Source: an uncultured Sphingomonas sp.
GTDB lineage: Bacteria; Pseudomonadota; Alphaproteobacteria; Sphingomonadales; Sphingomonadaceae
Direction: 5' to 3'
DNA length: 64,000 bases
Assembly (NCBI RefSeq): GCF_946477935.1
Contig: NZ_CAMLAC010000002.1
Coordinates: 378 to 64,377, forward strand
The translations under genes and the position numbers were made by a program. Positions 10,594-37,985 of this stretch are shown here, one piece after another (positions within the stretch are counted from its first letter, which is position 1; each line of letters starts with the position of its first letter). The notes beneath the pieces were generated by a model. The model searched no databases. It had not been told where the DNA came from and saw nothing but the letters and a program-made list of their open reading frames with translations.

Positions 10594-13500
10594 ATGCACT
10601 CGATCGCCTCGGTCCGCTCCGCATCGGGTGCCGCGAGCTATTTCGCGAAGGACGACTTCCAGGACGATTACTACACCGCTGACGGAGCCTCGGAGGTCAA
10701 TAGCTGGGGCGGGAAAGGGGCCGAGACGCTCGGCCTGGAAGGCGAGGTCTCGCGGGAATCATTCGAGGCGGTCCTGAGCGGGATACTGCCGAGCGGCGAG
10801 GGCGTGGCGCAGGTCGAGAATCGCCGTCACGGGCTTGATCTCACCTTCTCGGCGCCGAAGTCCGTTTCGGTCATGGCCTATGTCGCCGGCGACAAGCGCG
10901 TGCTCGCCGCCAACATGGCGGCCGTCCAGAAAACCATGGCGTGGGTCGAGAGGAATCTCGCCGAGGGGCGCAAGGATGTCGAAGGGCGCAAGGTGCCGGT
11001 CCAGACCGGCAATCTTGTCTATGCGCTCTTCCAGCACGACACCAGCCGCGCGCTCGATCCGCAGGCCCACGTCCATGCCGTGGTCGCCAACCTGACGCAG
11101 ATGCCGGACGGCAAATGGCAGGCACTTCATGCCGACAAGATCTGGAGCCACAACGCGACGATCGGCGCCATCTACCACGCCTATCTGCGGGCCGGGCTTG
11201 AGAAGCTGGGTTATCAGGTCGAGTTGAAGGGCAAGCACGGCACCTTCGAGATATCGGGCGTGCCGAAAGCGGTGATCGATGCCTTCAGCCAGCGGCGCGA
11301 GGCGATCCTTGAAAAGGCTGCCGCGCTCGGGATCGTCTCAGCCAAGGGTCGCGACGGCGTCACTACCACGACCCGCGATCCCAAGCTTAACGTCGAGGAC
11401 CGCGACGGGCTCGTTAAAGGCTGGATCGACAAGGCGTCGGGGCTCGGCTTCGACGGCAATAGCCTAATCGCCGCAGCCACAGCCCGCGCCGGTCAGCGTC
11501 TCGGGGCGGGGCCGATCGAGCGCGGATATCGCGCGGTAAGCGATGCGATCGCGAGCGCTCGCACGTCGCTCGGCGGGTTCCTGCGCCCACGCGATCCTCT
11601 CGTCGACAGCGGGCTCGCTCGCGCTACCCAGTCACCGGCGATTGCGCGCTCGCAGCTCGCGGTCGCGTCGGCAGTCCGGATCCTGGCGGAGCGCGAGGCG
11701 GCGTTCAACGTCCATCTGCTCGCAAGGACCGCGTTGGACCTCGGCTTGCAAGGCGTCACGATCGACACGGTCGAGCACCGGATCGGCCAGCTCCTCGAGA
11801 CCCGCCAGCTCCTCCCCGGGGTCGCGAGAGCCGGCGACAGGGGCGTCCAGATGGTAACCACGCAGGAAGCGCTGCGCACCGAAGAAGCGATCCTGAAAAG
11901 CGTTGAGGCAGGGGCCGGCACGGCAGATCCGGTCGTAGCGGCGAGTGCGGCGCCCGAGCGCCTGCAGAGTGTCGCCGATCGGCCGCTCAACGCCGGCCAG
12001 CTTGCTGCCGCGACCCTGATCCTGTCGTCGCCCGACCGCACCGTCACCATTCAGGGTGTCGCCGGTGCCGGCAAGTCGACGATGCTGCAGGCCGTGGCCC
12101 GGATCGCAGAAGCCGAGGGCCGCACAGTGCTCGGCCTCGCCTTTCAGAACAAGATGGTCGCGGACTTGGCCGAGGGTGCCGGCATCAAGAGCCAGACGAT
12201 CGCGTCCTTCGTCCTCGCGAACGAACGGTTTGTCACCGAGCGCGATACGAACCGATTCGAGGAAGCGCAGGCCCGGCTGGCAGGCGCCTTGCTGGTGGTC
12301 GACGAGACCTCGATGGTCTCGAGCAGCGACCTGCTGATGCTGCACCGGATCACCGGGGCGCTCGGCGTCGACAAGCTGGTGCTGGTCGGCGATCGCCAGC
12401 AGCTCTCCTCGATCGACGCCGGCAAATCGTTTGCGATGATCCAGGCGGCCGGAGGGACGATGGCGCGGATGGACGAGAACATCCGTCAGCGCACCGACAC
12501 GCTGCGGACGGTCGCCGCGCTCGCCAATGTCGGCCGGGCGGGCGAGGCGATGAAGGTGCTGGGCGACAATGTCCATGAGAGCGCGAGTCCACCCGAGACG
12601 GCGGCGGGCATGTGGCTCGCACTATCGGCCGAGGACCGCGATGCCACAGCCGTGTTCGCGTCGGGCCGCGCATCGCGCGCGATCATCAATCAACGTATCC
12701 AGGACGGCCTTGCGGCCGAAGGAACGGTGCGAGGGCAGGGTATCCATCTCACGGTCTTCGAGCGCGTCAACCTCACGCGCGAGGAGCTGCGCTACGCCTC
12801 GACCTATCAGGTCGGCCAGACGCTCGACGTCGGCCGCGGGGGCGCGCAGGACATCGGTCTCAAGCAGGGGCGCTACGATGTCACGCGCGTGCTGCCGAGC
12901 GGCAAGATCGAGCTCAGCGATGGGCGGCGGCATATCCGCTTCGATCCCCAAAGCCTGTCGCCCACCGAAAAGCGGGATCGGCTCGAACTTACCCAGAAAA
13001 AGGACCTCCACGTCCACGAGGGCGACCGCATCCGCTGGACCGCCAACGACAAGCCCCGCGACCTCCATAACGCCGCGCTCGCGCGTGTGGTGTCGGTGGA
13101 CAGCGCGGGGGTGACGGTCGAAACCGCGGGCAAGCAGACGCTCACGCTCGATCTCGGCGATCCGATGCTGTCGCGGCTCGATCTCGCCTACGCGCTCAAC
13201 ATGCACATGGCGCAAGGCATCACGACCGACAAAGCTATCACGGTGATGGACAGCCACGAGCGCAACCTGTCCAACCAGCGGCTCTTCAATGTCGGTGTCA
13301 CCCGCGTGCGCGACGAGCTCGTCATGGTGGTGGATGACAAGGGGAAGCTGGAGCGCCAGCTCGACCTCAATCCGGGCAACAAGACCTCGGCGCTCGAGAC
13401 GCTCGGGCGCATCGACATCGACGGAAGGAAGGGGCCCGCCGCGCCGGTGAAGTTCGATCCCGGCCCGATCGACGGCATCAATCTGGCCGGCGAGCCCGAC

Positions 13501-17770: not shown

Positions 17771-20700
17771 TCAGTGAAAATCATGGCTGCGGATGCGCAG
17801 CAACTCTTCTTCGTCGGGAACGGCGTTGAAGGGCGGATAGGCCAGCGTTCGCCCACGCGGTGGCCAGGTCGGGTCACGCGGATCGGGACCGGCGCCGTTC
17901 TTCGCACCATCACCGCGTCCCGGCGCAACAGTGAAATCCATCTTCCCGATCGATCGCAGCATGTCGTCATGGTCCGTGACGCGGTCGCAGATGATGTGGA
18001 TGACCTCACCCTCCTTCTGGACCCTGCCGCGCATGGCTATCATCGAGGCGGACATGACCTGGCGGCGATAAATCTCGAACCGGTCGGGCCACAGGATGCC
18101 GTTGGCGATGCCGGTCTCGTCTTCGATCGTGATGAACAGCACTCCTTTGGCGGAGCCTGGACGCTGGCGGACGAGGATCACGCCGGCGACCTCCACGTTG
18201 GGGCCGTCGCGTACCGAGGCGAGATCGGCGCATCGGGTAATACGCATCATATCGAGCTGGCCGCGAAGAAAGCTCATCGGGTGGCCGCGCAGCGATAGCT
18301 GGAGCGAGCGATAGTCCTCGACCACCTCGCGCCCATCGGTCATCGTGCGGAGCGGAACCGACGGCTCCAAGCCCTCGGGCGAGAACTTCTCCTCGCGCGC
18401 GTCGGCGGCAGCGAACAGCGGCAGCGGCGCTTCGCCGAGCCCTTTCACTTTCCACAGGCCCTGGCGGCGGTTTTCAGCGAGGCAGTGGAAGGCGTCGGCT
18501 TCAGCCAACCGCTCGATCGCGGCGCGCGGCACACCGGCGCGGCGCCACACCTCCTCAATGCTCTCGTAGGGCGCTGGCCCGCGTGCCGCTGCGATCGCGG
18601 CGCCATGGACGTTCGCGAGCCCGCGAACTTGCCGGAACCCGAGCCGTACCGCCATGTAGCGGCCGCCGGTTGGTTCCAGCGTACAGTCCCAATGGCTGCG
18701 ATTGATCGACACCGACCGTACTTCGACATCATGCTTGCGCGCGTCGTCGACGATCTGGGCGGGGGCATAGAAGCCCATTGGTTGCGCGTTGAGCAGCGCT
18801 GCGCAGAACACGTCGGGATGATGGTGCTTCATCCAGCACGACGCATAGGCGATCTTGGCGAAGCTGGCGGCATGGCTCTCGGGAAACCCGTACGAGCCGA
18901 ATCCCTCGATTTGCTTGAACGTCCTCTCAGCAAAGTCCTTCGGATAGCCGCGCGCCACCATCCCGCTGACCAACTTGTCATAGAAGTGGCTGACCCCGCC
19001 CGTGAGCTTGAAGGTGGCCATTGCGCGACGGAGCTGATCGGCCTCTTGGGGAGTGAACCCGGCGCCGACGATGGCGACCTTCATGGCCTGCTCTTGAAAG
19101 AGCGGCACGCCGAGAGTCTTCTCGAGGACGGCGCGCAGCTCGGGTTTAGGATATTCGGGCTTCTCTTTGCCCTCCCGGCGCCGGAGATAGGGGTGGACCA
19201 TGTCACCCTGGATCGGTCCCGGCCGCACGATCGCGACCTCGATGGTGAGATCGTAGAATTCCTTGGGCTTCATGCGTGGCAGCATGTTCATCTGCGCGCG
19301 GGACTCGATCTGGAAGACGCCGAGCGTGTCGGCCTTCTGGATCATCGCGTAGACATCAGGGTCATCGTCCTGCAGGTCGGCCATGCCGACCCTGATGCCC
19401 TTGTCCTGCTCCAAGAGGTTGAACGCGCGGTTAAGGCAACCGAGCATGCCCAAGCCCAGCACGTCGACTTTCATGAATTTGAGGGCGTCGATATCGTCCT
19501 TGTCCCACTCAATGATCTGGCGATCCTCCATCCGTGCAGGCTCGATCGGCACGAGATCGTCGAGCCGGTCCTGGGTCAGCACGAAACCGCCGGGGTGCTG
19601 CGACAGGTGTCGCGGGTGCCCGATCAGCTGGCGGGCGAGCTGAAGCGTCAGCTTCAGCCGGTGATCCCCGGCATTGAGGTTGAGGCTTTCGATCTGCTCG
19701 TCGCTGATCCCGTCGACCGACCAGCCCCACACGAGCCCGGTCAGCATTTTCGTTAGGTCGCGTGGCAGGCCCAGCGCCTTGCCGACCTCAGCGACTGCGC
19801 CGCGAGTGCGGTAGCGGGTTACCACGGCGGTGAGGGCGGAGCGGTGACGTCCGTAGGTCTCGTAAATCCATTGGATGATCTCTTCGCGTCGCTCATGTTC
19901 AAAATCGACGTCGATATCGGGCGGCTCCTTTCGCTCGCCGCTTACGAAGCGTTCGAACAGCAATTCGTGCTTGATGGGGTCGATCGACGTGATGCCGAGC
20001 AGAAAGCAGACGCAGCTGTTGGCCGCGCTTCCGCGACCCTGACACAAGATGCCGCGGCGGCGGCTCTCGCCGACGATCGAATGCACCGTCAGGAAGTAGG
20101 GCGCATAACCTAGCTGGTCGATCAACCTGAGCTCGTGGTCGATTTGGGAACGATATGCCTGCGGTACGCCCCCGGGGAACATGCGCGCTGCCGCCTCCTC
20201 GGTCAGCGCCGCCAGCGCCTCCTGCGCCGTCCGCCCAGCGATGACCTGCTCGTATGGATACTGATACTGGATCTCGCCAAGGTCGAATCGGCACTGCGCC
20301 GCAATGTCGGCGCTGGCCCGGACGGCATCCGGGAAGTCAGCGAACCGCCGCTCCATCTCGGCCGGAGACTTCAGGTTCCGGTCCATGTAGCGCTCGCGCC
20401 GGAACCCGAGCGCATCGATCGTCGTCCCTTCGCGGATGGCCGTCATCACGTCCTGCAAGGGCCGCGCCTCGCCGGTGTGATAGAGCACATCTCCGGTAGC
20501 GACGCTCCGCACGCCCGCGGCACGCGCCATCGCATCCAGCCCGTAGAGGCGTTCGGCATCATCGGGGCGGCGGCGCAGCGACAGCGCCAGATAGCCGCGA
20601 GATCCGAACACGGCACGCAGCTCATCGAGGCGAGCGGCTGTGGTCTCGTCCGGCATATCCGGCACGAGGATCGCCACCAGCCCGTCGGCATGCGCCGCGA

Positions 20701-21049
20701 CGTCGCTCCAGTCGAGGATGCAGAGGCCCTTGCCGCCACGCGCCTTGCCGACCGACAGGAGGCGCGTCAGTCGCGACCAGGCGGTGCGGTCGGTTGGATA
20801 AAGCAGCACCGCTCGGCCGTCGGTCAGATCAACCCGGGCGCCGGGCATCATGCGCACGCCGGTAGCCTTTTGCCCATCCCAGCCGCGGACCACGCCAGCG
20901 ACGCTACCCCGATCGGCCAGACCCAGCGTATGATGACCGAGCAGAGCGGCTGCAGAAAACAGTTCCTCGGGCGAGCTGCTGCCACGCAGGAACGAGAAGT
21001 GGCTCGTCACCTGGAGCTCGACGTAGATCGTTGCGGGCGCGTCCGTCAT
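17771..21049 (-). CDS. dnaE2: Error-prone DNA polymerase DnaE2 (ImuC)
   Basis: [18 protein letters not shown] start, [37 protein letters not shown]-terminal IRSHDFH; ATGA overlap with imuB; 1092 aa. Confidence 0.97.
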
Positions 21050-22905
21050 CCGAACAGCCCGTGCATGTACCAGCTGAGGTCGCCGGTCGGCGCCTCGACG
21101 CCGTCCCCGCGGCGAAACAGCCAGAAGCGCTCGCCACCCTCGGCCTCCACCCGGAAATAGTCCCGCACCGCCCACATCTCGCGCTCGTTGCGCCACCACT
21201 CGCCATGGATGCGTTCCGGGCCATCGCCGGCGACGACGCGATAGATGCGGCCGCGCCACGCGAACCGCCGCGGCGGGTGATCCGGCAACAGCGCCACGAC
21301 GTTGCTGAGCGCCTCGGGCCGACGCAGCAACCGCACCGGCCGCTTCCACGTCGGCCAGCCAGCCGGTGCCGCGAGCACGTCTGTCCGTCGGATAGCACGC
21401 TCAGGCACGTCGCTCTCTTCCGCGCCAACCCGGAACAACGCGGCCTCGCCGACGCGTCCGGCAAGCTGGTCGACCAGCGGCGAGAGGTCGGCGGGGAGAT
21501 CGTCGCCGACCAGCACCGCACCGAGCGACACCGGTGCAAGATCCTCGATCCTCGGGGCGGCAAGCGCCACCGCCTCGATACCCAGCCCCGGATCGATCCG
21601 TTCGACCCGCATCGCCAGCATACGCGTGAGATGCTTCGCGTCGCGCGTCGCCCGCGCGGTTCCAAGACCGATACGCTGCTCGTCGCCGTCGACGCGCAAG
21701 CAGGTCAGCACCGCGGCGCGAACACCGAGCCCCCGCGCTTGCAGCACCGCCACCATGTCGTCGACGAGATCGCCAATCACCTGGGTGATCGCCTCGGCTG
21801 TACCGATCGGTTCCAGCAGCCGGCGCATCACGCGCGGCTCTTCGAAGGGCACCACCGGAATGATCGGCTCGGCGACCATCCCGCGGGCCTGGTCGAGGCG
21901 AGTGACCGTCGCCATGCCGAGCCGGCGCGCGAGCGGACCGCGCGGCATCGAATAGAGGTCGGAAACCCGCTCCAGCCCGAATCTGGCGGCCGCATGCAAC
22001 GCCTCTGGCGTCAGCCGCAGCGAGGCAAGCGGCAGATCGGCGAGAATCTCCGTTTCTGAGCCAGGTGGCACGATAGTGGCCGGCTTGCCGCCGTAGCGCG
22101 CCAGCGCATGCGCTGCGCCCGGTGTGCCGGCGATCGCAATGCTGGCGGTGAAGCCGACACGCTGGAGGAAGCGCAGTAAGCGGCGGCAGAAGTGCGGCTC
22201 GCCACCGAACAGATGGGTGGTGCCGGTTAGATCGAGCCACAAGCCATCCGGTCCGGCGACACTGGCGGAAGGCGTCCAATGGCCGACCGCATGGAGCGCC
22301 AGCCGGTCGAGCCAAGCGCGATCCTTGTCGTGCTCAGCGTCGCGTACGTCGAGACCGGCGACGAGGGCGCGGGCATAGGCCGCAGCCATGCCGGGGCGCA
22401 GGCCTAGCTCGAGCGCAGCCGGGCAAGCAGCGGTCAACACGTCCTTCTGGCCGACCCGTTCGATCAATACGGTCGGGCGACCCCATATCCGATCAAGCGG
22501 GGCTGGCACAGCACGTCCGCGCCCCGGCGTACCTTCGTCTGGCGGCATCGCCTTGAACGGATGATCGGCTGGTTCGCTGCGGCGGCCAAGCATACGCCTG
22601 GGCGGTTGCTGATGCGCCGGCAGCGTTGCGATCGCTTGCTCGACCGAAGCGTGCGGCGATGCGCCATCGCGTGGCCATGCCGCGGAGCCATGATCGGCGA
22701 GCGCCCAGCGCGCGCCCGGCCGCCAGCCGCCGCCGCGTGGCACCGAGCAGGCGCCAGGATCGTCGTCGATCGGCGGTGCGAACCTCAAGCGTGTGGGGGC
22801 CGGCAGCGCCTCAGGCAGCTTGGCTGGCCGCTCCAACCGCCGCAGCCGCTCGATGGCGAGCTGGGGCAGGTAGAGCGAGGCGACCCTGGTCATCACACGC
22901 ATCAA
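21046..22905 (-). CDS. imuB: ImuB, Y-family polymerase-like protein
   Basis: [34 protein letters not shown]-terminal [10 protein letters not shown]...RDYFRVE...FWLFR; located between imuA and dnaE2. Confidence 0.93.
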
Positions 22906-23605
22906 GTTCGAGGGAGAAAGGATTGCCGTTGCGCTGTCTGACCAACTCGACCGACCAGCGTGGACGGCCGACGCCAGGATAAGGTAGCCTGGCTGACGAC
23001 ACGCAGCCGATCCGCCAGCGGGTCATCGCCGACGAGGGCTGACCGAGCGGACAACGGTCGCACGAGCGATGCCGGCGGTAGAGCAGCATCGGCGTCCCGC
23101 CATCCGATGCGGCAAGCTGGAGGCGGCGGGTCGCGGTCTGATCGGCCAACTTCACCTCGGCGACCACGCAGGCGAGCGAGCCGAATCGCAACGCATCCTC
23201 GGCCAGCGCCAGCACCTCGGCATCCTTGCCCGCTTCGGCGTGGAAAATGCGCTCTGGACCGAGCCCGACCTGATCGAGCCCCGGCGCATAAAGGTCGTAG
23301 CGGCTCAGTGCCCACAGCACCGTAAATCCTGGTTGTGAGGCGAACCTGGCGGCGATGCCGGCTGCAAATAGCGTGGCGGCCGCGTCGTCGTTCAGCGAGG
23401 CGGTGGCGGCAGCGATCTCATGGAGCCCGGCGCCGTCGAGCCCGCCGCCGGCAACCTTGCTATCGACCGCCTCCAGTCCAAACGCCAGTACCGGCCCGCG
23501 CTGGCTCTGGGCTTGCGCAAGCTGCGCGCGAAGCGCGGCTAGTTGATCGGCATCGGGCCGATCGGGGGACGACGAAGGTAGGAGCATCGGGCAACATCGA
23601 CTCAC
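22811..23605 (-). CDS. imuA: ImuA (RecA/SulA-like)
   Basis: GGGLDGAGLHEI, ALAEDALRFG, RRLQLAASDGG, RPRWSVELVRQRNG; alternative start at 23587. Confidence 0.92.
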   Translation of the reverse strand: MSRCCPMLLPSSSPDRPDADQLAALRAQLAQAQSQRGPVLAFGLEAVDSKVAGGGLDGAGLHEIAAATASLNDDAAATLFAAGIAARFASQPGFTVLWALSRYDLYAPGLDQVGLGPERIFHAEAGKDAEVLALAEDALRFGSLACVVAEVKLADQTATRRLQLAASDGGTPMLLYRRHRSCDRCPLGQPSSAMTRWRIGCVSSARLPYPGVGRPRWSVELVRQRNGNPFSLELDACDDQGRLALPAPARHRAAAAVGAASQAA

Positions 23606-23607: not shown

Positions 23608-23622
23608 GTTCCTTCTATGTTC
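23608..23622. promoter_or_regulatory. Alphaproteobacterial LexA (SOS) box upstream of imuA
   Basis: GTTC-CTTCTAT-GTTC, a perfect GTTC-N7-GTTC. Confidence 0.9.
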
Positions 23623-23691: not shown

Positions 23692-24129
23692 TCACCCCGC
23701 CGGCGCCGCATCTCCGATGAGGCGTAGCGTCATCGGGTCGCGCTTGCCGCCAAACCAGCGGTCAAGCGCCGCGGCGATGAGCGCATTGGGACGAACTGCC
23801 TCGAACAGGGTCAGCGACGAGCGCAGCTTCGTGGCATCGATGTCGCCGAATACAGCCTCGGCATTGCTCGTCGCGAGATCCTGCAGGGCGGCGACGCATT
23901 CGAGATAGCGTGGACCCAATACGGCGTGGTCGAGATAGGCGCGTGCCTCTTCGAGCGACCGGACGGCGAAATGCTGCGCGGTCGAACTGCGCCCGAGCCC
24001 GGTGAACTGTGGGAAGACATACCACATCCAGTGCGAGCGCTTGGCCCCACGCCGGATTTCCGCGAGCGCGGTCTTGTAGTTGAGGGTCTGAGCCTCGACG
24101 AAACGATCGAGCGAGTTAACGTCCGGCAT
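23692..24129 (-). CDS. DUF1810-family protein
   Basis: LDRFVEAQ...ALAEIRRGAKRSHWMWYVFPQ..GLGRS...EARAYLDHAVLGPR...KLRSSLTLF. Confidence 0.9.
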   Translation of the reverse strand: MPDVNSLDRFVEAQTLNYKTALAEIRRGAKRSHWMWYVFPQFTGLGRSSTAQHFAVRSLEEARAYLDHAVLGPRYLECVAALQDLATSNAEAVFGDIDATKLRSSLTLFEAVRPNALIAAALDRWFGGKRDPMTLRLIGDAAPAG

Positions 24130-24130: not shown

Positions 24131-24739
24131 TCAGAGCAGCGCCGGTTCTGCGGCCGGGAACACGCGCGTGACCGGCAAACTGCCTTTCGGTAACGCCCGC
24201 AGCACATCCTTCGGCGGCACCGACGGATCAAGCCAGTCAGCCCATTGATCGCGGGTCAGCGGGATGATCTGACGATGATGATAGGGCGCGACATCTTCAC
24301 CCGGCTCCATGGTCAGCATGGTCCAAGCTTCGCCGGATGGCACCGCCCGCCAGATGCCCGCGATGCAGAACCAGTCGTGTCCCTTCAGCGTGAACAGCCA
24401 CTTTGTCTTGCGCTTCTGACCTGGCTGCGGTTCGGTAAACTCATAGAAGCCATCGGCCAGGATCAAGCAACGCCCGGAGGCAAATTCGCGACCTTCGCTG
24501 CGGTAGTTGTAGACGGGCCTGCCGCCTTGCCCTGGCCAGCTCCATCTACGACTGACCAGCTCGCCCACGCCACGTTCGCCCTCGACACCGCGTACTATCG
24601 GGGCTGAATCGCTTATCTTGATATCCTCTCGAGCTGCCACGTTGGGCGTGCCTTCGGGGGTCTTGATCTTGATCTTGAGGTCTTCAAAGTCTTCCATGAT
24701 CGAGGCGATGTCCACCTCCAGCCGATAGTCATTGCACAC
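24131..24739 (-). CDS. SOS response-associated peptidase (SRAP/YedK/HMCES family), catalytic
   Basis: GTG start giving MCNDY (Cys2), RCLILADGFYEF (Glu), PYHHRQ (His). Confidence 0.9.
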   Translation of the reverse strand: MCNDYRLEVDIASIMEDFEDLKIKIKTPEGTPNVAAREDIKISDSAPIVRGVEGERGVGELVSRRWSWPGQGGRPVYNYRSEGREFASGRCLILADGFYEFTEPQPGQKRKTKWLFTLKGHDWFCIAGIWRAVPSGEAWTMLTMEPGEDVAPYHHRQIIPLTRDQWADWLDPSVPPKDVLRALPKGSLPVTRVFPAAEPALL

Positions 24740-24769
24740 ACGCCCCAGCCTTTCTTGCGACCTGCCGTC

Positions 24770-24784
24770 GTTCCCACTATGTTC
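24770..24784. promoter_or_regulatory. LexA box between the divergent SRAP genes
   Basis: GTTC-CCACTAT-GTTC, a perfect GTTC-N7-GTTC. Confidence 0.9.
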
Positions 24785-24791
24785 CTGCGGG

Positions 24792-25313
24792 ATGGAGTCG
24801 CCTATACCATTTGATACCGACGCCCCGCCGGGGGGCAGACGTGCCATCATCAGGCGAAATCCGGATGATGCCAGCGAAATCGAGATGGTCGAGGCGGCCT
24901 GGGGGTCCAACCCGCGGTTCAGTGATGGCGCCTCGTTGCGGTTCGTTCGCTCGGAAGGCCGCCCATTCCCGAACAACCGTTGCCTGATTCCAGCCAGCGA
25001 ATTCCACATGCGCGTGGGAGACAACCGCTACCGCGCGACTCTCGACAGCGGCAACTTCTTCTATCTTGCCGCCATCTGGGAGCCGGCAATTGGCGGGTGG
25101 CCGCTCAGCTTCCGTGTCATCACAGTCGCGGCGAACGCTGAGGTTGCCCGCTACCAGGACCGGCATGGCGCGATCATCGAACGACGGCACCGGATGCAGT
25201 GGCTCGACGCTACCGTTCCGGAGATCGACCTGCTGCAGACGCCGCCAGAGCGGACCTTTCTCGTCGAGCGGCTCGTAGGGGGCGGGACCAGCCAAGCGGT
25301 GCTCGCCCTGTGA
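24792..25313 (+). CDS. SRAP-family paralog lacking the catalytic triad
   Basis: RSEGRPFPNNRCLIPASEFHMR and VARYQDRH align with the neighbouring SRAP but lack Cys2, Glu and His. Confidence 0.75.
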   Translation: MESPIPFDTDAPPGGRRAIIRRNPDDASEIEMVEAAWGSNPRFSDGASLRFVRSEGRPFPNNRCLIPASEFHMRVGDNRYRATLDSGNFFYLAAIWEPAIGGWPLSFRVITVAANAEVARYQDRHGAIIERRHRMQWLDATVPEIDLLQTPPERTFLVERLVGGGTSQAVLAL

Positions 25314-25338: not shown

Positions 25339-25599
25339 ATGGACGTGCTAGCGGACGCAGCAAGTTGGCTGACCCAAGAGGCCGACGAGATCCTACTCGA
25401 ATATCCTCGAACATCGCCTGCGGACCTCGCCACGTCGTTCGAGCGGACGATAGCCAGCTATGACGGCGATCGGGACATGGCTGTGGCCATCATTGCCGAG
25501 CTGAGGCACCGCGCCGGCGCGGGCGTACGCTTTTGGCCTGGCCAGCCCTCCGAGCCGGAGGCGGCCGATGCAATTACGGGCGACGACATACCGTGGTGA
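25339..25599 (+). CDS. Small acidic protein ending GDDIPW (86 aa)
   Basis: AAGGAG RBS; stop overlaps the next start (GTGA). Confidence 0.7.
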   Translation: MDVLADAASWLTQEADEILLEYPRTSPADLATSFERTIASYDGDRDMAVAIIAELRHRAGAGVRFWPGQPSEPEAADAITGDDIPW

Positions 25600-26030
25600 C
25601 GGCTCCGAGACGGTTCGAACTGGCCTCCGCGAATCCGCGTCCATATTTGGTGCTTGGCGCAGTCGTCACATCGTTTTCTTGGGCGACACCCGCATCGGCA
25701 GATCCTTGCGAGGGAGTTCTGCCCGCTCGCGGTGCCGTCTTCTCGGGTGTCGTTCGCTATGTCGGCGATGGCGACGGCCTCTGCATCGGACCTGCGAGAC
25801 GGCCGGACCGGTGGATCGAGGTGCGCCTCGCCGACTTCGACGCCCCGGAGCTAAGTGAGCCAGGTGGCCAGCGTGCGAAGCGATTGCTCGCAAGCATCGT
25901 CATGGGCCGCTCTCTCACCTGCCGCGCTGGCCGACGTAGCTATGACCGGATTGTGGCGCATTGCAGGTTAGATGAGCGTCCGCTCGGCAATCTATTACGC
26001 GACCGCGGCGGTCGCGAAGGCGGCCGCTAA
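25596..26030 (+). CDS. Thermonuclease (SNase-like) family protein, probably exported
   Basis: Hydrophobic N-terminus ending ATPASA, then VRYVGDGDGLC, VRLADFDAPE, SYDRIVA. Confidence 0.8.
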   Translation: MTAPRRFELASANPRPYLVLGAVVTSFSWATPASADPCEGVLPARGAVFSGVVRYVGDGDGLCIGPARRPDRWIEVRLADFDAPELSEPGGQRAKRLLASIVMGRSLTCRAGRRSYDRIVAHCRLDERPLGNLLRDRGGREGGR

Positions 26031-29478: not shown

Positions 29479-29555
29479 GGCGAACCGTCATCCTGCGTGC
29501 TGTACACGCGCTGACGCGCCGCAGGAATATCTCCTGAAGCGCGAGCACGCGTCCG

Positions 29556-30041
29556 TTACGCCAGATGCGCCGGTCGCCGCTCGACCGAATTGAAGAACAG
29601 AACGAGCGACGCTGCGAGGAGGACGGCGTCCTTCAGCAGGAACTGACCCGGCGCCGCCGAAATCGCGGGGAATCCTCCCGCGCTGGCTTCCGCGACGCCC
29701 GGTGTGGTCACGAAGAATGTCAGCGTGATCAGGTAGGTGGCAACTGACATCAGCGCACCCAGCGCCGAGAAGACCGGCCGAAACGCGCCGATGGCGAGAG
29801 CCGCAGCCGTCGAGAGCTCGATGACCCCGATGAAGTAGCTCTGCCCTTGCGTTCCGAACATGCCGAGCCAGCTCATCAGCGGGCTATGCCCGATAAACGG
29901 AGCGATCCCGTCAGCTTCGTACATCGTGAACTTCATGGCACCGAACCATAGAAAGACCAAGACGAGCGCCCATCTCAGCAGCGCCAAGTCCTTTCTGTCT
30001 TGCTCGGCGACATGAAAGCGGTAGCGGTTCAGAAACGGCAT
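29556..30041 (-). CDS. DUF417/YkgB (RclC-like) inner-membrane protein
   Basis: LRWALVLVFLWFGAMKFTMYEADGIAPFIGHSPLMSWL...IGVIE...TLTFFVTTPG...GQFLLKD, the RclC/YkgB signature. Confidence 0.85.
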   Translation of the reverse strand: MPFLNRYRFHVAEQDRKDLALLRWALVLVFLWFGAMKFTMYEADGIAPFIGHSPLMSWLGMFGTQGQSYFIGVIELSTAAALAIGAFRPVFSALGALMSVATYLITLTFFVTTPGVAEASAGGFPAISAAPGQFLLKDAVLLAASLVLFFNSVERRPAHLA

Positions 30042-30089
30042 CTGGAACTCCTCAATGAAGATGATGTCGGTTGAGTAGGGTCGAGTGGC

Positions 30090-30599
30090 TCAATGGCGCC
30101 GCGCGCCCATCGGGCAGCCAAGACATTTTGCCTGATCGCAGAAGCGGCACGTTGGCAGCGCGCTCTGCGGATCATCGAGCAGCGAAGTGAGAATGGTGTC
30201 GGCGATCCGCTCCAAGACTGCGCGGTCGTTGTCAGGAACCCGAACCAACAAACCGGAGACCGCAGCATTTCTCAGACCGAGAAGTTTGGTTCGCTCGGCC
30301 TGACCCCGCCGTGTGAGCGTGATATGGGCGACGCGGCGGTCGGACGGCGACTGTGACTTTCCCACAAGGCCTTGATCATCCAGCCGCTCGACCACACGCA
30401 CCGTTCCGGCGTGCGAGAGGCGAAGGATTCGGCTGATCTGATCGATCGACATCCCCGGCTCGTGACCAATTGCGATCAGCGCGGCCGCAGTTTCCCCGCC
30501 CGCAGTGAACGCTTCGGCGATAGCAATCCGTACCCGATCGGACACGGCCTGAGAAAGCGCGCCGAAAACGTTGATCAGTCGATCTGAGGGCTCGTCCAT
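30090..30599 (-). CDS. MarR-family regulator with C-terminal C-x2-C-x4-C-x2-C motif (MarR1)
   Basis: LSHAGTVRVVERLDDQGLV...DRRVAHITLT wHTH; tail CRFCDQAKCLGCP; start uncertain (30599-30632). Confidence 0.85.
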   Translation of the reverse strand: MDEPSDRLINVFGALSQAVSDRVRIAIAEAFTAGGETAAALIAIGHEPGMSIDQISRILRLSHAGTVRVVERLDDQGLVGKSQSPSDRRVAHITLTRRGQAERTKLLGLRNAAVSGLLVRVPDNDRAVLERIADTILTSLLDDPQSALPTCRFCDQAKCLGCPMGARRH

Positions 30600-30622
30600 C
30601 ATCAGCATGACTCGATGGAATA

Positions 30623-30637
30623 TATGCGTCACGCATA
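30623..30637. promoter_or_regulatory. TATGCG-TCA-CGCATA palindrome upstream of MarR1
   Basis: Exact copy, 23 bp from the predicted start. Confidence 0.8.
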
Positions 30638-30790
30638 CACCTTCAATCGGCTTATGTCGAGTTAGAACCGGGAATTGTTGCGCCGGTCGTCCGGATCACC
30701 TCTTGTCGATGAGACTTTGACGATCGTGAGCCCGGCGCAGACAAGCCGCTCGGACGGATATATTCCGAGCGCCGGCGTCTCGCCGTATAG

Positions 30791-31807
30791 TCAGCTGTCC
30801 AATTTGCCCATCTCGAGTGCTGTATCGGCCATGCGGGTCGCAAAGCTCCACTCGTTGTCATACCAAGCAAGCACGCGAACCATTCGCCGGTCGACAACAT
30901 CGGTCTGAGGGAGTGCGACGATCGACGACTCGGTCCGATGGCTCAAATCGATCGATACCAGCGGTTCGGCGGTGACTGCCAGCACGCCCTGCATTGATCC
31001 ATCGGCAGCTTGCCGGATGGCTTCGTTCACTTCGTCAACGGTGACGTCGCGCATGGCGGACACAGCCAGGTCGATGACCGACACGTTGGGAGTGGGAACC
31101 CGGATCGACGATCCGTGCAGCTTGCCCTTCAACTCCGGCAATACGCGGCCAATGGCGTTCGCCGCGCCCGTCGACGTCGGGATCATCGAGAGGGCAGCCG
31201 CGCGGCCGCGATATGGGTCCGAGTGGACGGCATCGAGCGTCGGTTGGTCCCCGGTGTAGGCGTGAACAGTCGTCATGTAACCGCGCTCGATACCGAACAG
31301 ATCGTTCAGCACCTTCGCCACGGGTGCGAGCACGTTTGTCGTGCAGGAGCCGTTCGAAACGATCACATCTTCGCTCGTCAGCGTATCGTGATTGACCTTG
31401 AAGACGATCGTCTTGTCGGCGCCCTCGCTGGGCGCGGAGACGAGGACGCGCTTTGCGCCGGCGCGAAGGTGCGCGCTCGCCTTGTCCTTCGAGGTGAAGA
31501 ATCCAGAGCACTCCAGCGCTATGTCGACCCCGCACCGCTGATGAGGCAAGTCCGCAGGGTCGCGCTCCGTAGTGACTTCGATTTTTCCGGAGCCGACGTC
31601 GATCCAGTCGGTACCGATATCGATTTCACCCGGGAAGGGACCGTGAATCGAATCGTATTTGAGAAGGTGGGCCAGGGTAGCGACTGACGCGAGGTCGTTG
31701 ATCGCCACCACCTGGATATCCCGACGGCCGAGCTCGACCATCGAGCGCAACGTCAGACGACCGATGCGCCCGAAACCGTTGATCGCGACCCTGACCGTCA
31801 TGCGCAT
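30791..31807 (-). CDS. gap: Type I glyceraldehyde-3-phosphate dehydrogenase
   Basis: VAINGFGRIGR, SNGSCTTNVLAP, TVHAYTGDQ, AWYDNEW. Confidence 0.95.
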   Translation of the reverse strand: MRMTVRVAINGFGRIGRLTLRSMVELGRRDIQVVAINDLASVATLAHLLKYDSIHGPFPGEIDIGTDWIDVGSGKIEVTTERDPADLPHQRCGVDIALECSGFFTSKDKASAHLRAGAKRVLVSAPSEGADKTIVFKVNHDTLTSEDVIVSNGSCTTNVLAPVAKVLNDLFGIERGYMTTVHAYTGDQPTLDAVHSDPYRGRAAALSMIPTSTGAANAIGRVLPELKGKLHGSSIRVPTPNVSVIDLAVSAMRDVTVDEVNEAIRQAADGSMQGVLAVTAEPLVSIDLSHRTESSIVALPQTDVVDRRMVRVLAWYDNEWSFATRMADTALEMGKLDS

Positions 31808-31897
31808 TTCCTTCAGTTGCTGAGAAATGGTCGCTGGCAGCGGGCACCTGCTCGCTACCGTCTGGAAGAGGTTTGAGACTCAAGCCGACGCAATATA

Positions 31898-31912
31898 TAT
31901 GCGCGGCGCATA
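31898..31912. promoter_or_regulatory. TATGCG-CGG-CGCATA palindrome between divergent gap and rpiA
   Basis: Exact arms. Confidence 0.75.
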
Positions 31913-32053
31913 GACCTAATCGTCGGTTCCTGGCAGGTCAACATGGTGAGGCGATCGAGCGCAGCAGGCGGGTGCCCGTCAGCTCATTCGCTACCGTCGA
32001 GGATAGCAGGTACCCCGCTGAGTGAGGACCCGAGGGCAAGACGGGAGACGTGA

Positions 32054-32743
32054 GTGGTGTCTGACCTTGAAGCAGAAAAGGTTCTCGCGGCCAGACGAGC
32101 GGTCGATGAAGTCCAGGATGGCATGCTTGTTGGATTAGGGACTGGCAGCACGGCTAACTACGCAGTTAGATGCCTGGCCGAGCGGATTGCCAGCGGTCTC
32201 CGCATCACAGCGGTGGCAACGTCGCGAATGACCGAAGTCTTGGCCCGCGAACTGGCCATACCGCTGACATCCATGGAAGGTGTCAGCTCAATCGACCTCA
32301 CGATCGACGGCGCTGACGAGATCGATCACCGCTTGCAGGCGATCAAGGGCGGTGGGGGGGCCTTGCTGCGGGAAAAGGTCATTGCTGCCGCGTCAGCTCG
32401 CGTCATAGCCGTGGTCGATTCCAGCAAGTTCGTGACGCAGCTGGGCCGCTTCCCGTTACCGATCGAGGCCTTTCCATTCGCCACCGCTTTCGTCGGGGCG
32501 CGCCTCGCTGATCTTGGAGGCCCGGTGTCTCTGCGAATGGAGGACGGCCGTCCGTTCGTGACCGATCAGGGCAACCACATTCTGGACGTTGCGCTTGGAT
32601 CTATTGCGGATAGCCAGCAGACCGCGCTCGCGATTTCAGGCATTCCGGGCGTCGCCGGGCACGGCCTCTTCCTCTCTGAGATCGACACCGTCGTTATTGC
32701 CCACGGCGGCACGGTCGAGCTCCGGCACGCGGAGCGGTCGTGA
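32054..32743 (+). CDS. rpiA: Ribose-5-phosphate isomerase A
   Basis: VGLGTGST, DLTIDGADE, IKGGGGALLREK. Confidence 0.95.
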   Translation: MVSDLEAEKVLAARRAVDEVQDGMLVGLGTGSTANYAVRCLAERIASGLRITAVATSRMTEVLARELAIPLTSMEGVSSIDLTIDGADEIDHRLQAIKGGGGALLREKVIAAASARVIAVVDSSKFVTQLGRFPLPIEAFPFATAFVGARLADLGGPVSLRMEDGRPFVTDQGNHILDVALGSIADSQQTALAISGIPGVAGHGLFLSEIDTVVIAHGGTVELRHAERS

Positions 32744-32981
32744 TGTCCATCCAGTCGCTTGCGTCGATCGATTGCACCGTCACGTCGGCGATGAGATGGA
32801 GGGAAACCACACGAGATCTAGCGTTCACCTAGCTGTCATAGCCGCCGCGTATCATGCTATTCGACAGCACGTCGCAAATTCTGATGAGTCAGACGGTTGC
32901 CCACAGGGCGTAAGAGGCTGATAATACAGCACTTACTCGCATTCGAGCCGTCCGTGTCAAACCACGCCGAAGCTTGCTGTC

Positions 32982-32996
32982 TATGCGCCACGCACA
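32982..32996. promoter_or_regulatory. TATGCG-CCA-CGCACA (1 mismatch) upstream of MarR2
   Basis: 13 bp before the predicted start at 33010. Confidence 0.65.
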
Positions 32997-33009
32997 TATA
33001 ACGGCGCGA

Positions 33010-33534
33010 ATGGATGGACCTCGAGACCGTAACGTGTTCGGGGCGTTCGCACTCATGATCGGCGAGGACATCGTTCGCGCTAGTTCATCGCGGGCGCCTG
33101 AAGAAGGACCTGCCGCTTCGGCGTTGGCGCTGATTGCGCACAAGCCCGGGCTTTCGGTGAGAATGCTCGCGATTGGCGTAGGCTTGTCGCACGCGGCGGC
33201 GGTTCGCCTTGCAGATCGCCTTACTATTCAAGGGCTGATCGAGAGCCGGGCGAGTTCGTCCGACGGGCGGGTCCGCTCCCTGTATCTGACATCGGCCGGT
33301 CAGACGGCCAGCGCCGCGGTCCTAGCCGCTAGAGATGAGGTAATCGCGGAAGGGTTGTCGATCCTCAACAAGGGCGAAATGAAGTTCCTGGCCGACATTG
33401 CCGAGCGCGTATTACGCGACCGTTTGGAGAACCTCGAGCATTCTTACCGCATCTGCCGCCTGTGCTGCTACGAAGGCTGTACCGATTGTCCTATCGACGC
33501 CGAGCTGCACGAGCGGGGGCGGGACCGCGAGTGA
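33010..33534 (+). CDS. MarR-family regulator with C-terminal C-x2-C-x4-C-x2-C motif (MarR2)
   Basis: NVFGAF, LSHAAAVRLADRL, DGRVRSLYLT; tail CRLCCYEGCTDCP; paralog of MarR1; start uncertain (32974-33010). Confidence 0.85.
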   Translation: MDGPRDRNVFGAFALMIGEDIVRASSSRAPEEGPAASALALIAHKPGLSVRMLAIGVGLSHAAAVRLADRLTIQGLIESRASSSDGRVRSLYLTSAGQTASAAVLAARDEVIAEGLSILNKGEMKFLADIAERVLRDRLENLEHSYRICRLCCYEGCTDCPIDAELHERGRDRE

Positions 33535-33563
33535 GGGCCACATCCATCCGGGTATGAGCCGGA

Positions 33564-34349
33564 TTAGTGTTGCGCGATCAGGTAAGCGGCGAGGAAGCCA
33601 AGAACCGTGATCAGGCCTATGAAGGGAGGCGCATTCTCGAATGCTTCTGGGATCATGGCCTCCGCCAGCATGGCTAGTACGGCCCCCGCCGCGAACAGGA
33701 GGATCGCCGGCTCCTGCGCCGATGCTGAACCGAGCAGAAAATTCCCGGCGGCGGCAGCGATCCCTATGAGCAGCGGTATCCCGATCCAAATCGTGTAGAC
33801 GTACCGACGCGACCGGCCGGCCTGCTTCATCCCCGAGGTGCTCGACAGTCCCTGAGGCACGTTAGCTAGAAAGAAGCCCGCGATCACCGCCAAGCTGATC
33901 GCGCCGCCGCCGGCGACTGACATCCCGATCACCAGGGCCTCCGGTATTCCGTCAAGCACACTGCCGACCGCGATCGCAGACCCACTCCCGTGATGCTCTG
34001 CCTCGTTCGGTTGCTCGACGCATTCGCCGCAGCGCTTCCGGTTCTTCGCGCCGCGGCGGGCCAGATACCAGTTTATGCTGCTGAAAACCGCCGCCCCTGC
34101 TGGCAAGGCGACGGTTGGCCATATATCCGCCCCCGCCGCGTCCGGTCGGACGACGAGTTCGGTGGCTATCACGGCAAACAGGACGCCGCCGCCAAAGCCC
34201 ATGACGGCTGCAATCATCCGGTGGCTGAGCTTGCCGAAGAAAGCGTCCGCAACGATCGCGCCCAGAAGCAACCCGCTACCGGATACCAGACCCCACAGAC
34301 CGGCAACAAGGAACTCAGGGATCGGGGAAGCAGGAGAGCCCATAGCCAC
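33564..34349 (-). CDS. ZIP-family metal transporter
   Basis: LDGIPEALVIG, NVPQGLSS, GAVLAMLAEAMIPEAF; loop motif RKRCGEC. Confidence 0.8.
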   Translation of the reverse strand: MAMGSPASPIPEFLVAGLWGLVSGSGLLLGAIVADAFFGKLSHRMIAAVMGFGGGVLFAVIATELVVRPDAAGADIWPTVALPAGAAVFSSINWYLARRGAKNRKRCGECVEQPNEAEHHGSGSAIAVGSVLDGIPEALVIGMSVAGGGAISLAVIAGFFLANVPQGLSSTSGMKQAGRSRRYVYTIWIGIPLLIGIAAAAGNFLLGSASAQEPAILLFAAGAVLAMLAEAMIPEAFENAPPFIGLITVLGFLAAYLIAQH

Positions 34350-34444
34350 TCAGCCTCTTTCAGATGATGTCGACACGCAGGATCGCTCGGTTGCGCATTC
34401 ACAAACGACCGGACGCGCGGGCGACTGGCGGCATCGCCACATCC

Positions 34445-35023
34445 TCACCGCTGTCGATCCAGGCGCCAATTGGGGCGCGCGAAGTGGCAGCTATAACCCC
34501 GTGGGTGGCGAACGAGGTACTTCTGATGCTCCGGCTCCGCTTCCCAGAAAGGCTCTTCGGGATTGATTTCGGATAAGACTGGCCCTGGCCATAGACCTGA
34601 CGCTTCGATCTCCTCGATCGTCGCCAAGGCAACTTCCATCTGACGCTTGTCGGTATAGAAAATAGCGGAGCGGTAGCTCGGACCGACGTCGCTACCTTGT
34701 TGCTCGTAGGTTGTGGGATCGTGGATCTGAAAGAAGAGCTCCAGCAAAGTTCGATAGCTCAGAAGGGCCGGGTCGAAGACCACTTCTACCGCCTCCGCGT
34801 GCCCATGATGATCATCGTAGGTCGGCGCCGCCATCTCACCGCCGATATATCCGACGCGCGTCGAGATGACCCCCCGCTTGCGACGCAGCAGATCCTCCAA
34901 ACCCCAGAAGCAGCCGCCGGCGAGTATCGCTCGCTCCGTACGGCTCGCCCCATCTCCGGCAACCCTGTCGCTTTCGGATCGCTCACTTACTGATCGATCC
35001 TGATTGTCGCCACCGGATGCCAT
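34445..35023 (-). CDS. msrA: Peptide-methionine (S)-S-oxide reductase, copy 1
   Basis: [45 protein letters not shown]. Confidence 0.93.
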
Positions 35024-35025
35024 GC

Positions 35026-36273
35026 TTACGCGGCCGACCGGGGGTCGGCTTCGCGGCTGGGCGAACCAACGAGATCGGTCTGAACATCGGATCCGCGAAT
35101 GAGCGTCAGATCGACGGGACAGCGATCGGCGATCTCAAGAATCCGTGCGCGCTGTTCCTCATCGAGAGGCCCCTCAAGGACGATCGTGCGCGTGAACCTA
35201 TCTGGCGGAACCATGTCCGCCACCTTCTTGTGCTCGACCCTCGTGCTCGCTCGTTCGAGCGGAAAGCCCTTCCGGTTAGCATAGAGGCGCATCGTCATTA
35301 CCGTGCAGGCAGCAAGGCCCGCCGAGACCAGTTCATATGGCGACAGACCGCTCCCTAACCCGCCGACTGAGGCCGGTTCGTCCGAGAAGATCGTGTGCTT
35401 GCCGCTGCGGACCCTAAGCTGAAACTTGCCTGCCAGCGTCTCGATGGCCTCGACCCCATCCGCTGCCTCAACCTGGGGAAGATCGGCTACAAGGGGCGGC
35501 AGGTAGCGATTTGCCCAGGTTGCCACCATTGCTGAAACGAAGTTTGCGTTGGCGGCATCGGCGATGAGATGATCTGCCATGTCGAGCGAAACAAAGCTCT
35601 TGGGGTGGCGAGCAGCGACGAAGATGCGCGACGCATGCTCAATCCCGACCACCTGATCGATAGGGGAGTGCAGGACGAGCAAGGGACGACGCAGCGTCGC
35701 CACCGCCTTCTCCACATCCACCTCCGCAACGGCGTCGATGAAGCTGCGACGAATGAGAAAGGGCCGCCCGGCGATTTCGACCGATGCTTCTCCGTCGCGC
35801 CTGACCGTGTCGAGATCGCTGGCATTGAAGACCTTCAGGATATGCTGGAGCTCCGCCGGAGCGCCGATAGTCGCCACGGCGACGATATCCGGGAGATCGG
35901 CGGCAGCCACCAAAGCGGCGGTTCCACCAAGGCTGTGCCCAATAAGGAGGGAAGGGGTCATTCCCGCGGCCGTCATCGCGTTCGCCGCTGATTTGAGATC
36001 CGTAACGTCCGAGGCGAAACTGACTGCCTCGCCTTGGGCGCTGCCTATCCCAGTTCCAGCAAAGTCGAATCGCAGCACGCCGATGCCCGCCCGCGAAAGC
36101 GCACGGGAAATATGGACAGCCGCTCGGCTGTCTTTCCCGCACGTGAAGCAATGGGCGAAGATCGCCCATCCTCGGGGGGTGCCTTCCGGCGGCTCCAGGA
36201 GGGCGGAAAGAGGCCGGCCCTCCTCGTTTTGGAACGTGAACGATGTGCCCGGCACGCCGATACCTCCCAGCAT
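35026..36273 (-). CDS. Bifunctional alpha/beta hydrolase-OsmC protein
   Basis: [14 protein letters not shown] nucleophile elbow, OsmC part LAACTVMT...IADRCPV. Confidence 0.9.
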
Positions 36274-36392
36274 CTATGGGCACCGATCGACGATCTCTGC
36301 CAGCCCGCGAGAGGGGTGATCGTCACCACCTCGCGTCTCACTGGGCCGCACAGCATCGGCATCGGCACCTGTCTCCACAGGCATCCTTTTTA

Positions 36393-36447
36393 TATGCGTC
36401 ACGCATATAGACAAGCCCCTACCGCCAAACTATATGCGTCGCGCATA
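36393..36447. promoter_or_regulatory. Two TATGCG-N3-CGCATA palindromes (36393-36407, 36433-36447) between divergent osmC-hydrolase and lysR
   Basis: Exact arms, 40 bp apart. Confidence 0.8.
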
Positions 36448-36517
36448 CTTCTCCGTAACGCTCGATCGACGCCTGATCCGTGGGGAAGTGCGTGACAGAC
36501 ACATGGGCCGAAGGGTG

Positions 36518-37393: not shown

Positions 37394-37411
37394 GTCAGAC
37401 AAAGCGTCAGA

Positions 37412-37984: not shown

Positions 37985-37985
37985 C

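Follow-up and report, generated by a model that had tools for sequence, protein, structure and literature searches.

A window of 64,000 nucleotides from an uncultured Sphingomonas sp. (contig NZ_CAMLAC010000002.1, positions 378 to 64,377) carries two divergently transcribed genes from the superfamily of SOS response-associated peptidases (SRAP): L (24131-24739, minus strand), encoding a canonical SRAP of 202 aa with Cys2, and R (24792-25313, plus strand), encoding an N-terminally shortened SRAP-fold protein of 173 aa. Positions 24131 and 25313 are the final bases of the stop codons of L and R, respectively, and a control region of 52 bp (24740-24791) serves both directions. L and R are proposed here to constitute a mobile, SOS-controlled two-gene module, in which R, probably an old duplicate of an SRAP gene turned pseudo-enzyme, would be an SOS-induced, clamp-tethered and non-covalent binder of single-stranded DNA (ssDNA) or abasic sites that partners L. 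The probability of this reading is put at slightly above one half (about 0.55). It is built on the observed sequence features and fold of R, the purifying selection acting on it, its synteny and co-inheritance with L and the conservation of the operator between the two genes.

L has a GTG start and its protein begins with MCNDYRL and carries the motifs NYRSEG, GFYEF and YHHRQ, so that the Cys2, FYE and YHHR which a sequence-only reading of the window had noticed in the left gene are all in place. The protein matches the Pfam SRAP family (PF02586) with an E-value of 2e-20 over the profile positions 1-196 of 214, and its Asn78, Glu100 and His154 occupy, in the alignment, the positions of N75, E105 and H160 of Escherichia coli YedK. 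With Cys2, the Asn, Glu and His residues and a full-length domain, L has the sequence characteristics expected of an SRAP crosslinking enzyme.

The protein encoded by R begins, from an ATG start, with MESPIPFD. Its match to the Pfam SRAP profile (45.4 bits; cut-off 27.1) is confined to the profile positions 79-189, and a BLASTP comparison of L with R gives 30% identity across 116 residues (E-value 4e-14). In this alignment RSEGREFASGRCLILADGFYEF stands opposite RSEGRPFPNNRCLIPASEFHMR, FYEF of L pairs with FHMR of R and YHHRQ of L with YQDRH of R, in agreement with the replacements of Glu by Met and of His by Gln claimed in the sequence-only reading. The residues F51, M73 and Q122 of R thus fall at the positions of Asn75, Glu105 and His160 of YedK. 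At the Asn75 position, the sphingomonad clade of R has an invariant Phe, whereas the more distant subclades have other residues, e.g. Val; Met or Leu occupies the Glu105 position in the R family; and the His160 position differs between the subclades, being Gln in the sphingomonad subclade of the window, His in a Rhizobiales-type subclade and Lys in a third one (motif KDRH). When diverse representatives were aligned with L and canonical SRAPs, all the short members (~165-190 aa) were found to lack Cys2, Asn75 and Glu105 jointly, while every sequence with Cys2 retains the His of position 160 and nearly all of them the Asn and the Glu too.

A search of the PDB with the single sequence of R returned nothing relevant and the profile of the family was needed. 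This profile aligns to the residues 42-188 of YedK (E-value 7e-7), which indicates that R has lost the first ~30-40 residues of a canonical SRAP, comprising the strand beta1 with Cys2 and the helix alpha1. The protein starts close to the '...YN-x-AP' motif, a conserved element that reads PFD-x-DAP in R. The absence of an N-terminal Cys, also claimed in the sequence-only reading, is borne out by the MESPIPFD start and by the conservation of the Cys-less N-terminus across the homologues: M-[DE]-S-P-T-P-F-D is conserved in 119 aligned close homologues of 165-200 aa. That reading would have been overturned by a true start supplying a Cys2, and no in-frame start followed by Cys was found. The frame upstream of R is open only to a TTG at 24732 and contains three Cys codons, none of them directly after a start codon. 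Another ATG, located within the LexA box of the control region (see below), is out of frame in the window and was rejected, leaving the conserved ATG at M-[DE]-S-P as the start of R. Some database entries (P0013, P0014, P0019, P0033, P0040, P0124) start with MF... at the box-internal ATG and carry four extra, spurious residues.

R is therefore devoid of the features that define the SRAP crosslinking enzymes, namely Cys2, Asn75, Glu105 and His160, and a protein without Cys2, the N-terminal strand, Asn75 and Glu105 would be unable to form the defining thiazolidine crosslink. The earlier description of R as a pseudo-enzyme is strengthened by the additional loss of Asn75, by the deletion of beta1 and alpha1 and by the joint nature of the loss throughout the clade. 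Annotation pipelines name R 'SOS response-associated peptidase family protein', to which the Prokaryotic Genome Annotation Pipeline (PGAP) adds the Gene Ontology (GO) term protein-DNA covalent cross-linking; this term is almost certainly wrong for the R clade. A covalent reaction of R through another nucleophile, either the internal Cys64 exposed by self-cleavage or an amine forming a Schiff base, is very improbable. Although Cys64 (RCL motif) is invariant and the C2A variant of YedK still forms a Schiff base with abasic DNA (PDB 8d2m), the Cys of the RCL motif commonly has a structural place in canonical SRAPs too, L among them, the thiazolidine link requires an N-terminal Cys, the N-terminal strand, Asn75 and Glu105 are all gone and a cleavage before Cys64 would split the fold.

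The fold of R was predicted with AlphaFold2 using a deeper alignment, yielding a predicted local distance difference test score (pLDDT) of 87.2 and a predicted template modelling score (pTM) of 0.82; an earlier run on a shallow alignment (pLDDT 58.7) was discarded. In a Foldseek search with the model, the top 20 PDB matches were all SRAP proteins with a probability of 1.00 and no other significant match was obtained, the query template modelling scores (TMq) being 0.70 for YedK and 0.66 for human HMCES. By its sequence score and its predicted fold, R can be placed in the SRAP superfamily (PF02586). The only invariant residues in the diverse R alignment, which extends down to 27% identity, are P41, R53, C64, W96, T111 and R124, and R53, T111 and R124 align to R77, T149 and R162 of YedK. 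In YedK, Arg77, Thr149 and Arg162 constitute a phosphate 'anchor' and the change of each to Ala abolishes ssDNA binding, while the E105A and H160A variants bind ssDNA tighter and the R4A and C2A variants have a lower ssDNA affinity (Wang et al., PMC6821365). Loss of the catalytic residues with retention of the anchor is the pattern that fits gripping of ssDNA without crosslinking, and the three retained anchor residues support a non-covalent ssDNA binding by R.

The same anchor, together with the C-terminal tail described below, would also suit an antagonist of L. By non-covalent competition for the abasic sites of ssDNA or for the cleft of the clamp, such an antagonist would limit DNA-protein crosslinks that look irreversible and so favour bypass. 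Since YedK without Glu105 or His160 binds ssDNA tighter, R could out-compete the crosslinker, and co-expression from a single operator is suited to a stoichiometric modulator. However, the co-inheritance and the similar constraint of the two proteins fit either cooperation or competition, and without its N-terminal strand R may bind less strongly, not more strongly; an antagonistic role is considered rather unlikely.

Homologues of R were sought among 5.8 billion proteins. A total of 598 homologues were found, of which the best 120 are mostly 170-180 aa long and 67-90% identical, with few fragments, and a pattern scan using one genome per species identified a relative in 281 genomes. The counts of loci given here out of 80 refer to the best 80 genome loci, all sphingomonad. 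Among the 78 of these used for the frame analysis, the R frame is intact in 77, at 168-181 aa. The ratio of nonsynonymous to synonymous substitution rates (dN/dS; Nei-Gojobori) was calculated for unsaturated pairs with dS of 0.05-0.6, and its median is 0.096 in the 67 pairs of R and 0.077 in the 34 pairs of L; the medians over all pairs are 0.25 and 0.19, respectively, with dS near saturation. The ratios indicate that R is under purifying, not relaxed, selection. The sequence-only reading had proposed dN/dS and the phylogeny of the triad-less clade as checks and relaxed selection in the homologues as grounds for abandoning it, and it withstood both analyses: in the maximum likelihood (ML) tree, the 33 short Cys-less proteins are all found on the same side of a split that has a Shimodaira-Hasegawa-like approximate likelihood ratio test (SH-aLRT) support of 95.

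The view of R as a decaying fragment, originated by duplication or inversion of L, is refuted by the data on the homologues, the selection and the tree and retains a negligible probability. R is indeed shorter than any canonical SRAP and without an active site, and the copy on Sphingobium herbicidovorans plasmid pMSHV is split in two; against decay stand hundreds of intact orthologues with conserved start and length, the dN/dS of ~0.1, a conserved promoter before R, the new invariant residues that have arisen in R and the depth and diversification of the group of short Cys-less proteins beside the well-supported split. The pMSHV copy (locus L030, 6640-7159), annotated as two coding sequences, is an isolated decayed copy. 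On the plasmid pSymA of Sinorhizobium meliloti 2011 (locus L026, 8631-9583), the dinB gene between R and imuA appears frameshifted, with two overlapping open reading frames (ORFs) on the opposite strand. Both cases look like local decay in an otherwise conserved module.

R was invariably found paired with L. A divergent SRAP of the MCNDYRL type, 62-96% identical to L, adjoins R in all the 80 loci, with a spacer of 47-67 bp in 78 of them and an insertion of ~0.8-1.3 kb in the other two. The divergent pair was found in six further contexts; it is present on S. meliloti pSymA, on an Ancylobacter plasmid and on the contigs carrying the proteins P0293 (a 7.2-Mb contig), P0276 and P0321, two of these three being contigs of metagenome-assembled genomes (MAGs) labelled Bradyrhizobium and Gemmataceae. 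The pairwise protein distances of L and R are correlated (r = 0.71; 0 of 999 permutations as high) and the L and R subtrees of the ML tree have the same shape. L and R are co-inherited and their synteny is obligate. A second architecture of the pairing is seen in a distant subclade (locus L021 in genome G105, 9187-10695; L022 in G101, 8063-10249), where a short Cys-less SRAP with the KDRH motif and a D-L-F tail lies upstream of a different canonical SRAP (MCNLYTV...) on the same strand; GTTC-N7-GTTC, the motif of the LexA box, is absent from the 80-105 nt directly upstream of the short KDRH SRAP genes in L021 and L022.

The link to the ImuABC mutasome, suggested in the sequence-only reading, holds as far as adjacency is concerned: orthologues of imuA-imuB-dnaE2 (65-96% identical, in the same order) adjoin L, at a distance of no more than 6 kb, in ~55 of the 80 loci. 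The association is nevertheless secondary, since L adjoins R in all 80 and the pair persists where imuABC is absent; in roughly one locus out of four, no gene for a polymerase lies within 6 kb. The other neighbours of the pair are variable and include dinB, ligD, xth, alkB and integrases. These associations have a bearing on an alternative in which R is not a partner of L but chiefly serves a translesion polymerase (Pol IV/DinB or ImuA-ImuB-DnaE2) as an accessory or regulatory subunit, recruiting or restraining it at abasic sites. In the Ancylobacter and Rhizobium plasmids dinB directly follows R, in S. meliloti pSymA R heads imuA-imuB-dnaE2 and, besides the frequent proximity of imuABC in the sphingomonads, SRAP-like small subunits of the Y-family polymerases have been proposed (PMC12926913). 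Yet L is the sole invariant neighbour, in the 80 loci as well as in the six other contexts, the loci devoid of a nearby polymerase gene make up roughly a quarter, the sphingomonad polymerases lie on the side of L and not on that of R, and the published UmuC-associated SRAP-like family has Cys2 and an hhalign probability to R of only 0.2%. A role chiefly with the polymerase is assigned a low probability.

Twelve sphingomonad megaplasmids carry the pair; most of them are conjugative and have MobF relaxases. Most of the window between ~29.5 and 48 kb is 82% identical to a Sphingomonas paucimobilis megaplasmid that also bears the pair, and the window is therefore probably plasmid-borne. About 61% of the stretch 25300-50000 is 82% identical to the S. 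paucimobilis plasmid NZ_CP065714, and a pair of ferredoxin reductase and sulfite-oxidase-like genes (within 29500-48000) is present on Aeromonas and Klebsiella plasmids as well, at 77% identity. In the locus L020 (genome G089, 8386-9345) the pair lies beside a gene that we take, from its HELGH motif and general knowledge, to encode an ArdC-like anti-restriction protein/metalloprotease; ArdC-type genes are usually found on conjugative elements. The L-R module is patchily distributed: in a sampling of the family with one genome per genus, a Cys-less homologue was detected in 2-4 of ~120 genomes, and another genome of the same genus lacks it. A class-wide genome search with the family profile was used solely to show this patchy distribution and gives no prevalence, because L also scores 1e-36 with the profile.

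R terminates in the hexapeptide QAVLAL-COOH, encoded by the codons at 25293-25310 (plus strand). The linker preceding it is variable, while Q168 is invariant and L171 at least 90% conserved in the close family, and the residues 164-173 have a pLDDT below 50, the tail being disordered in the AlphaFold2 model. The pattern Q-x-x-[LMFI]-x-[LFIVM]-COOH is present in 163 of the 185 family proteins (88%) and in 76 of the 80 loci, and the distant KDRH subclade has pentapeptide-like tails with ...D-L-F instead, e.g. QTDLFR and ASDLFDF. A hexapeptide QLxLxL is one of two textbook forms of the motif, usually located at a flexible terminus, by which bacterial proteins bind the beta clamp, an example being QLVLGL of E. 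coli Pol IV. The Pol IV of the same genome as the window terminates in QPQLPL-COOH and the DinB adjoining R in Ancylobacter in QLALL; QL(S/D)LF, the second form, is a published C-terminal beta-clamp-binding motif (PMC9690074). These resemblances suggest that the tail of R is a motif of the beta-clamp-binding type, through which R might dock on the clamp DnaN.

The tails of L are less uniform. In the sphingomonad loci, 62 of 78 fit a loose [QE]-x-x-L pattern that includes the EPALL-type ends; in many of these loci L has a clamp-type tail (QGALAL, Q-x-x-L-L, QASLL, QQVLL), in the Rhizobiales and ~10 sphingomonad loci it ends in ...VEQVG, and the L of the window ends in EPALL (24131-24160). With such variation in L, R is the consistent carrier of the motif in the pair, and the clamp tail of the active enzyme seems to have been gained and lost while that of R remained constant. 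The tail of R has also been considered, instead of a clamp motif, as a degron through which ClpXP, Lon or Tsp would limit the lifetime of R once the SOS response is over. Several SOS proteins are controlled by proteolysis, and the free C-terminus of R (...LAL or ...LAF) is non-polar; but the invariant residue is a Gln six positions from the end, as in the QLxLxL-type clamp motifs, the distant subclade has the D-L-F endings typical of QL[SD]LF, and the Pol IV encoded in the same genome has a tail of the same kind. A degradation signal in place of a clamp motif is quite unlikely.

The sequence-only reading had held that the two genes share one LexA box, and the direct repeat GTTCCCACTATGTTC (24770-24784, plus strand), of the alphaproteobacterial type, is indeed located in the spacer. 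GTTC-N7-GTTC is found in 79 of the 80 orthologous spacers, ending 5-8 nt before the ATG of R in nearly all and 2 nt before it in one, and also in the S. meliloti and Ancylobacter spacers. The number of such sites in the window is by itself not above chance, with three sites in 64 kb and 22 of 100 shuffles reaching three; the significance of the box is derived from its conservation in the spacers and from the occurrence of the same motif in two overlapping copies directly upstream of lexA and in a single copy upstream of recA in the same genome, which also supports the motif as the LexA operator of this organism. Two blocks of the control region are conserved across 68 non-identical spacers, CTTGCG with 1.7-1.9 bits per position and GTTC-N4-TATGTTC with 2.0 bits per position. 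They contain a candidate sigma-70 promoter of R (24755-24783, plus strand), in which TTGCGA (24755-24760) and TATGTT (24778-24783), separated by 17 nt, read toward R, with the -10 element TATGTT lying within the LexA box. An operator overlapping a promoter in this manner would place the pair in the alphaproteobacterial LexA regulon.

The space before the ATG of R is too short to hold a leader or a Shine-Dalgarno sequence, and the R mRNA is hence probably leaderless; L has Shine-Dalgarno-like sequences. The opposite strand of the same base pairs reads CATAAT (CATAGT in the window), a candidate -10 element for L. A generic scan for promoters and terminators called no sites, the R promoter having been missed because only 8 of its 12 consensus positions match.

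From these data the following course of events can be envisaged. Cleavage of LexA would free the single operator in the 52-bp spacer and, as this operator overlaps the -10 element of R and the candidate -10 element of L, a joint switch-on of both genes is expected. L would lose its initiator Met, after which Cys2 would crosslink abasic sites in ssDNA via the thiazolidine link. At stalled primer ends, R would use its tail to dock on the beta clamp, would bind the template ssDNA or the abasic sites reversibly and would act together with L; its likeliest contribution is to position the template with the lesion for L or to hold it there. R may, in addition, fill a clamp cleft that is contested by the translesion polymerases ImuABC (ImuB/DnaE2) and Pol IV. 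LexA binding and control, ssDNA binding, clamp binding and the cooperation of L and R are the steps that we infer. A more specific form of the proposal assumes a two-protein SRAP system whose non-catalytic subunit, R, would dock on the beta clamp with its C-terminal hexapeptide, bind the template at the primer junction via the Arg/Thr/Arg anchor and then recruit or position the Cys2 SRAP; this form is tentative and has a distinctly lower probability. In many lineages the Cys2 SRAP has no clamp motif of its own. If this form is true, the shielding of abasic sites in bacteria would be linked to the replication clamp much as HMCES is linked to PCNA; catalysis would fall to one paralogue and tethering to the other, and the two would spread jointly on conjugative plasmids beside error-prone polymerases.

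Several points weigh against a clamp-tethered, SOS-induced partner of L. The deletion of beta1 may weaken the DNA binding of R, by analogy with the R4A and C2A variants of YedK. The clamp motif is short and degenerate, its position 2 being seldom Leu, and the hydrophobic ...LAL-COOH end could be a protease degron instead. The EPALL end of L, which is not Q-x-x-L-L, makes the clamp docking of L itself uncertain in the window. The promoter of R is a candidate whose proposal is founded on conservation, given its partial match to the consensus, and a -35 element of L could not be identified in the spacer.

R shares its fold and the Arg77/Thr149/Arg162 anchor with YedK and with the SRAP domain (PF02586) of human HMCES. 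It differs from them in being ~50 residues shorter, in lacking Cys2, the N-terminal strand, Asn75 and Glu105, in the variability of the His160 position and in never being found without a canonical SRAP alongside, in the 80 loci and the six further contexts. A C-terminal PCNA-interacting protein (PIP) box reportedly tethers HMCES to PCNA. HMCES and R are alike as SRAP folds with a short motif, putative in R, for clamp docking on a disordered C-terminal tail; the putative motif of R is of the bacterial beta-clamp type and, in the Rhizobiales and some sphingomonads, is present on the non-catalytic paralogue and not on L, because L there ends in ...VEQVG. The pair hence suggests that the protection of abasic sites in bacteria is tethered to the replication clamp, in the manner of human HMCES.

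ImuB is a dead paralogue of the Y-family polymerases that carries a clamp-binding motif and bridges its partners to the clamp in ImuA-ImuB-DnaE2, and ImuA and SulA are dead RecA paralogues. R resembles ImuB in being the inactive paralogue of an enzyme acting on DNA damage, apparently under SOS control, and in its proposed role as an adaptor; it differs from ImuB in fold and partner. Aravind et al. 2013 (PMC3765255) describe ImuB as an inactive UmuC paralogue and report SRAP genes beside the imuABC, umuDC and dinB SOS translesion cassettes, the same genomic association that is seen for R. A term search of that article turned up no inactive paralogue of SRAP, and full-text literature searches found no description of a Cys-less SRAP. 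In the UmuC-SRAP-like-RecA modules of Planctomycetes, a small SRAP-related protein has been proposed as a damage-tolerance partner (Timinskas et al. 2026, PMC12926913). These planctomycete proteins (e.g. Gimesia QDU13703, MCTGITI...) have Cys2 and are linked to a UmuC-like polymerase, unlike R. Membership of R in this family was considered and rejected, no similarity being detectable by hhalign.

YedK and HMCES have been studied as single-chain suicide sensors, and the gap lies in how such sensors are recruited to the fork in bacteria and balanced against translesion synthesis. A conserved pseudo-SRAP that always stands beside an active SRAP is a concrete candidate for this missing layer, and the conserved, mobile SRAP/pseudo-SRAP pair is a testable handle on the localisation of abasic-site shielding and the balancing of mutagenic bypass. 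The occurrence of the module with imuABC, dinB, ligD, xth and alkB on conjugative megaplasmids bears on plasmid-conferred damage tolerance and stress-induced mutagenesis. The apparent clamp-type tail, the apparently leaderless and LexA-overlapped promoter of R, the plasmid-borne mobility and the occurrence in the Rhizobiales extend what had been read from the window alone.

The genes following the 3' end of L in the window are, in order, a DUF1810 gene, imuA, imuB and dnaE2. The DUF1810 gene (23692-24129, minus strand; Pfam PF08837, E-value 3e-53) begins 1 nt 3' of L and is retained between L and imuA in most of the sphingomonad loci; it is probably on one transcript with L and may be a further member of the L-R module. 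A second GTTC-N7-GTTC box (23608-23622, plus strand) lies directly upstream of imuA (22811-23605, minus strand; NCBIfam ImuA, E-value 2e-14, below the model cut-off; ORF start 23605), which is followed by imuB (21046-22905, minus strand; Pfam IMS domain) and dnaE2 (17771-21049, minus strand), the mutasome cassette imuA-imuB-dnaE2 spanning 17771-23605 downstream of L and the DUF1810 gene. In the annotation of S. cloacae pSCLO_2, the corresponding products are protein ImuA and error-prone DNA polymerase, and the imuB homologue is named DUF6504 family protein.

On the other side of the pair, an ORF at 25596-26030 (plus strand) encodes a protein that appears to carry a signal peptide and matches the Pfam family SNase (staphylococcal nuclease) weakly, below the threshold (E-value 0.086); in 11 of the 80 sphingomonad loci, a homologue of this ORF directly follows R on its downstream side. 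A third SRAP gene of the same genome, on another contig (C24:27568-28161, minus strand), encodes a protein beginning with MCNRARM... that keeps the Glu and the His and is without a clamp-type tail. This gene presumably represents the housekeeping copy on the chromosome.

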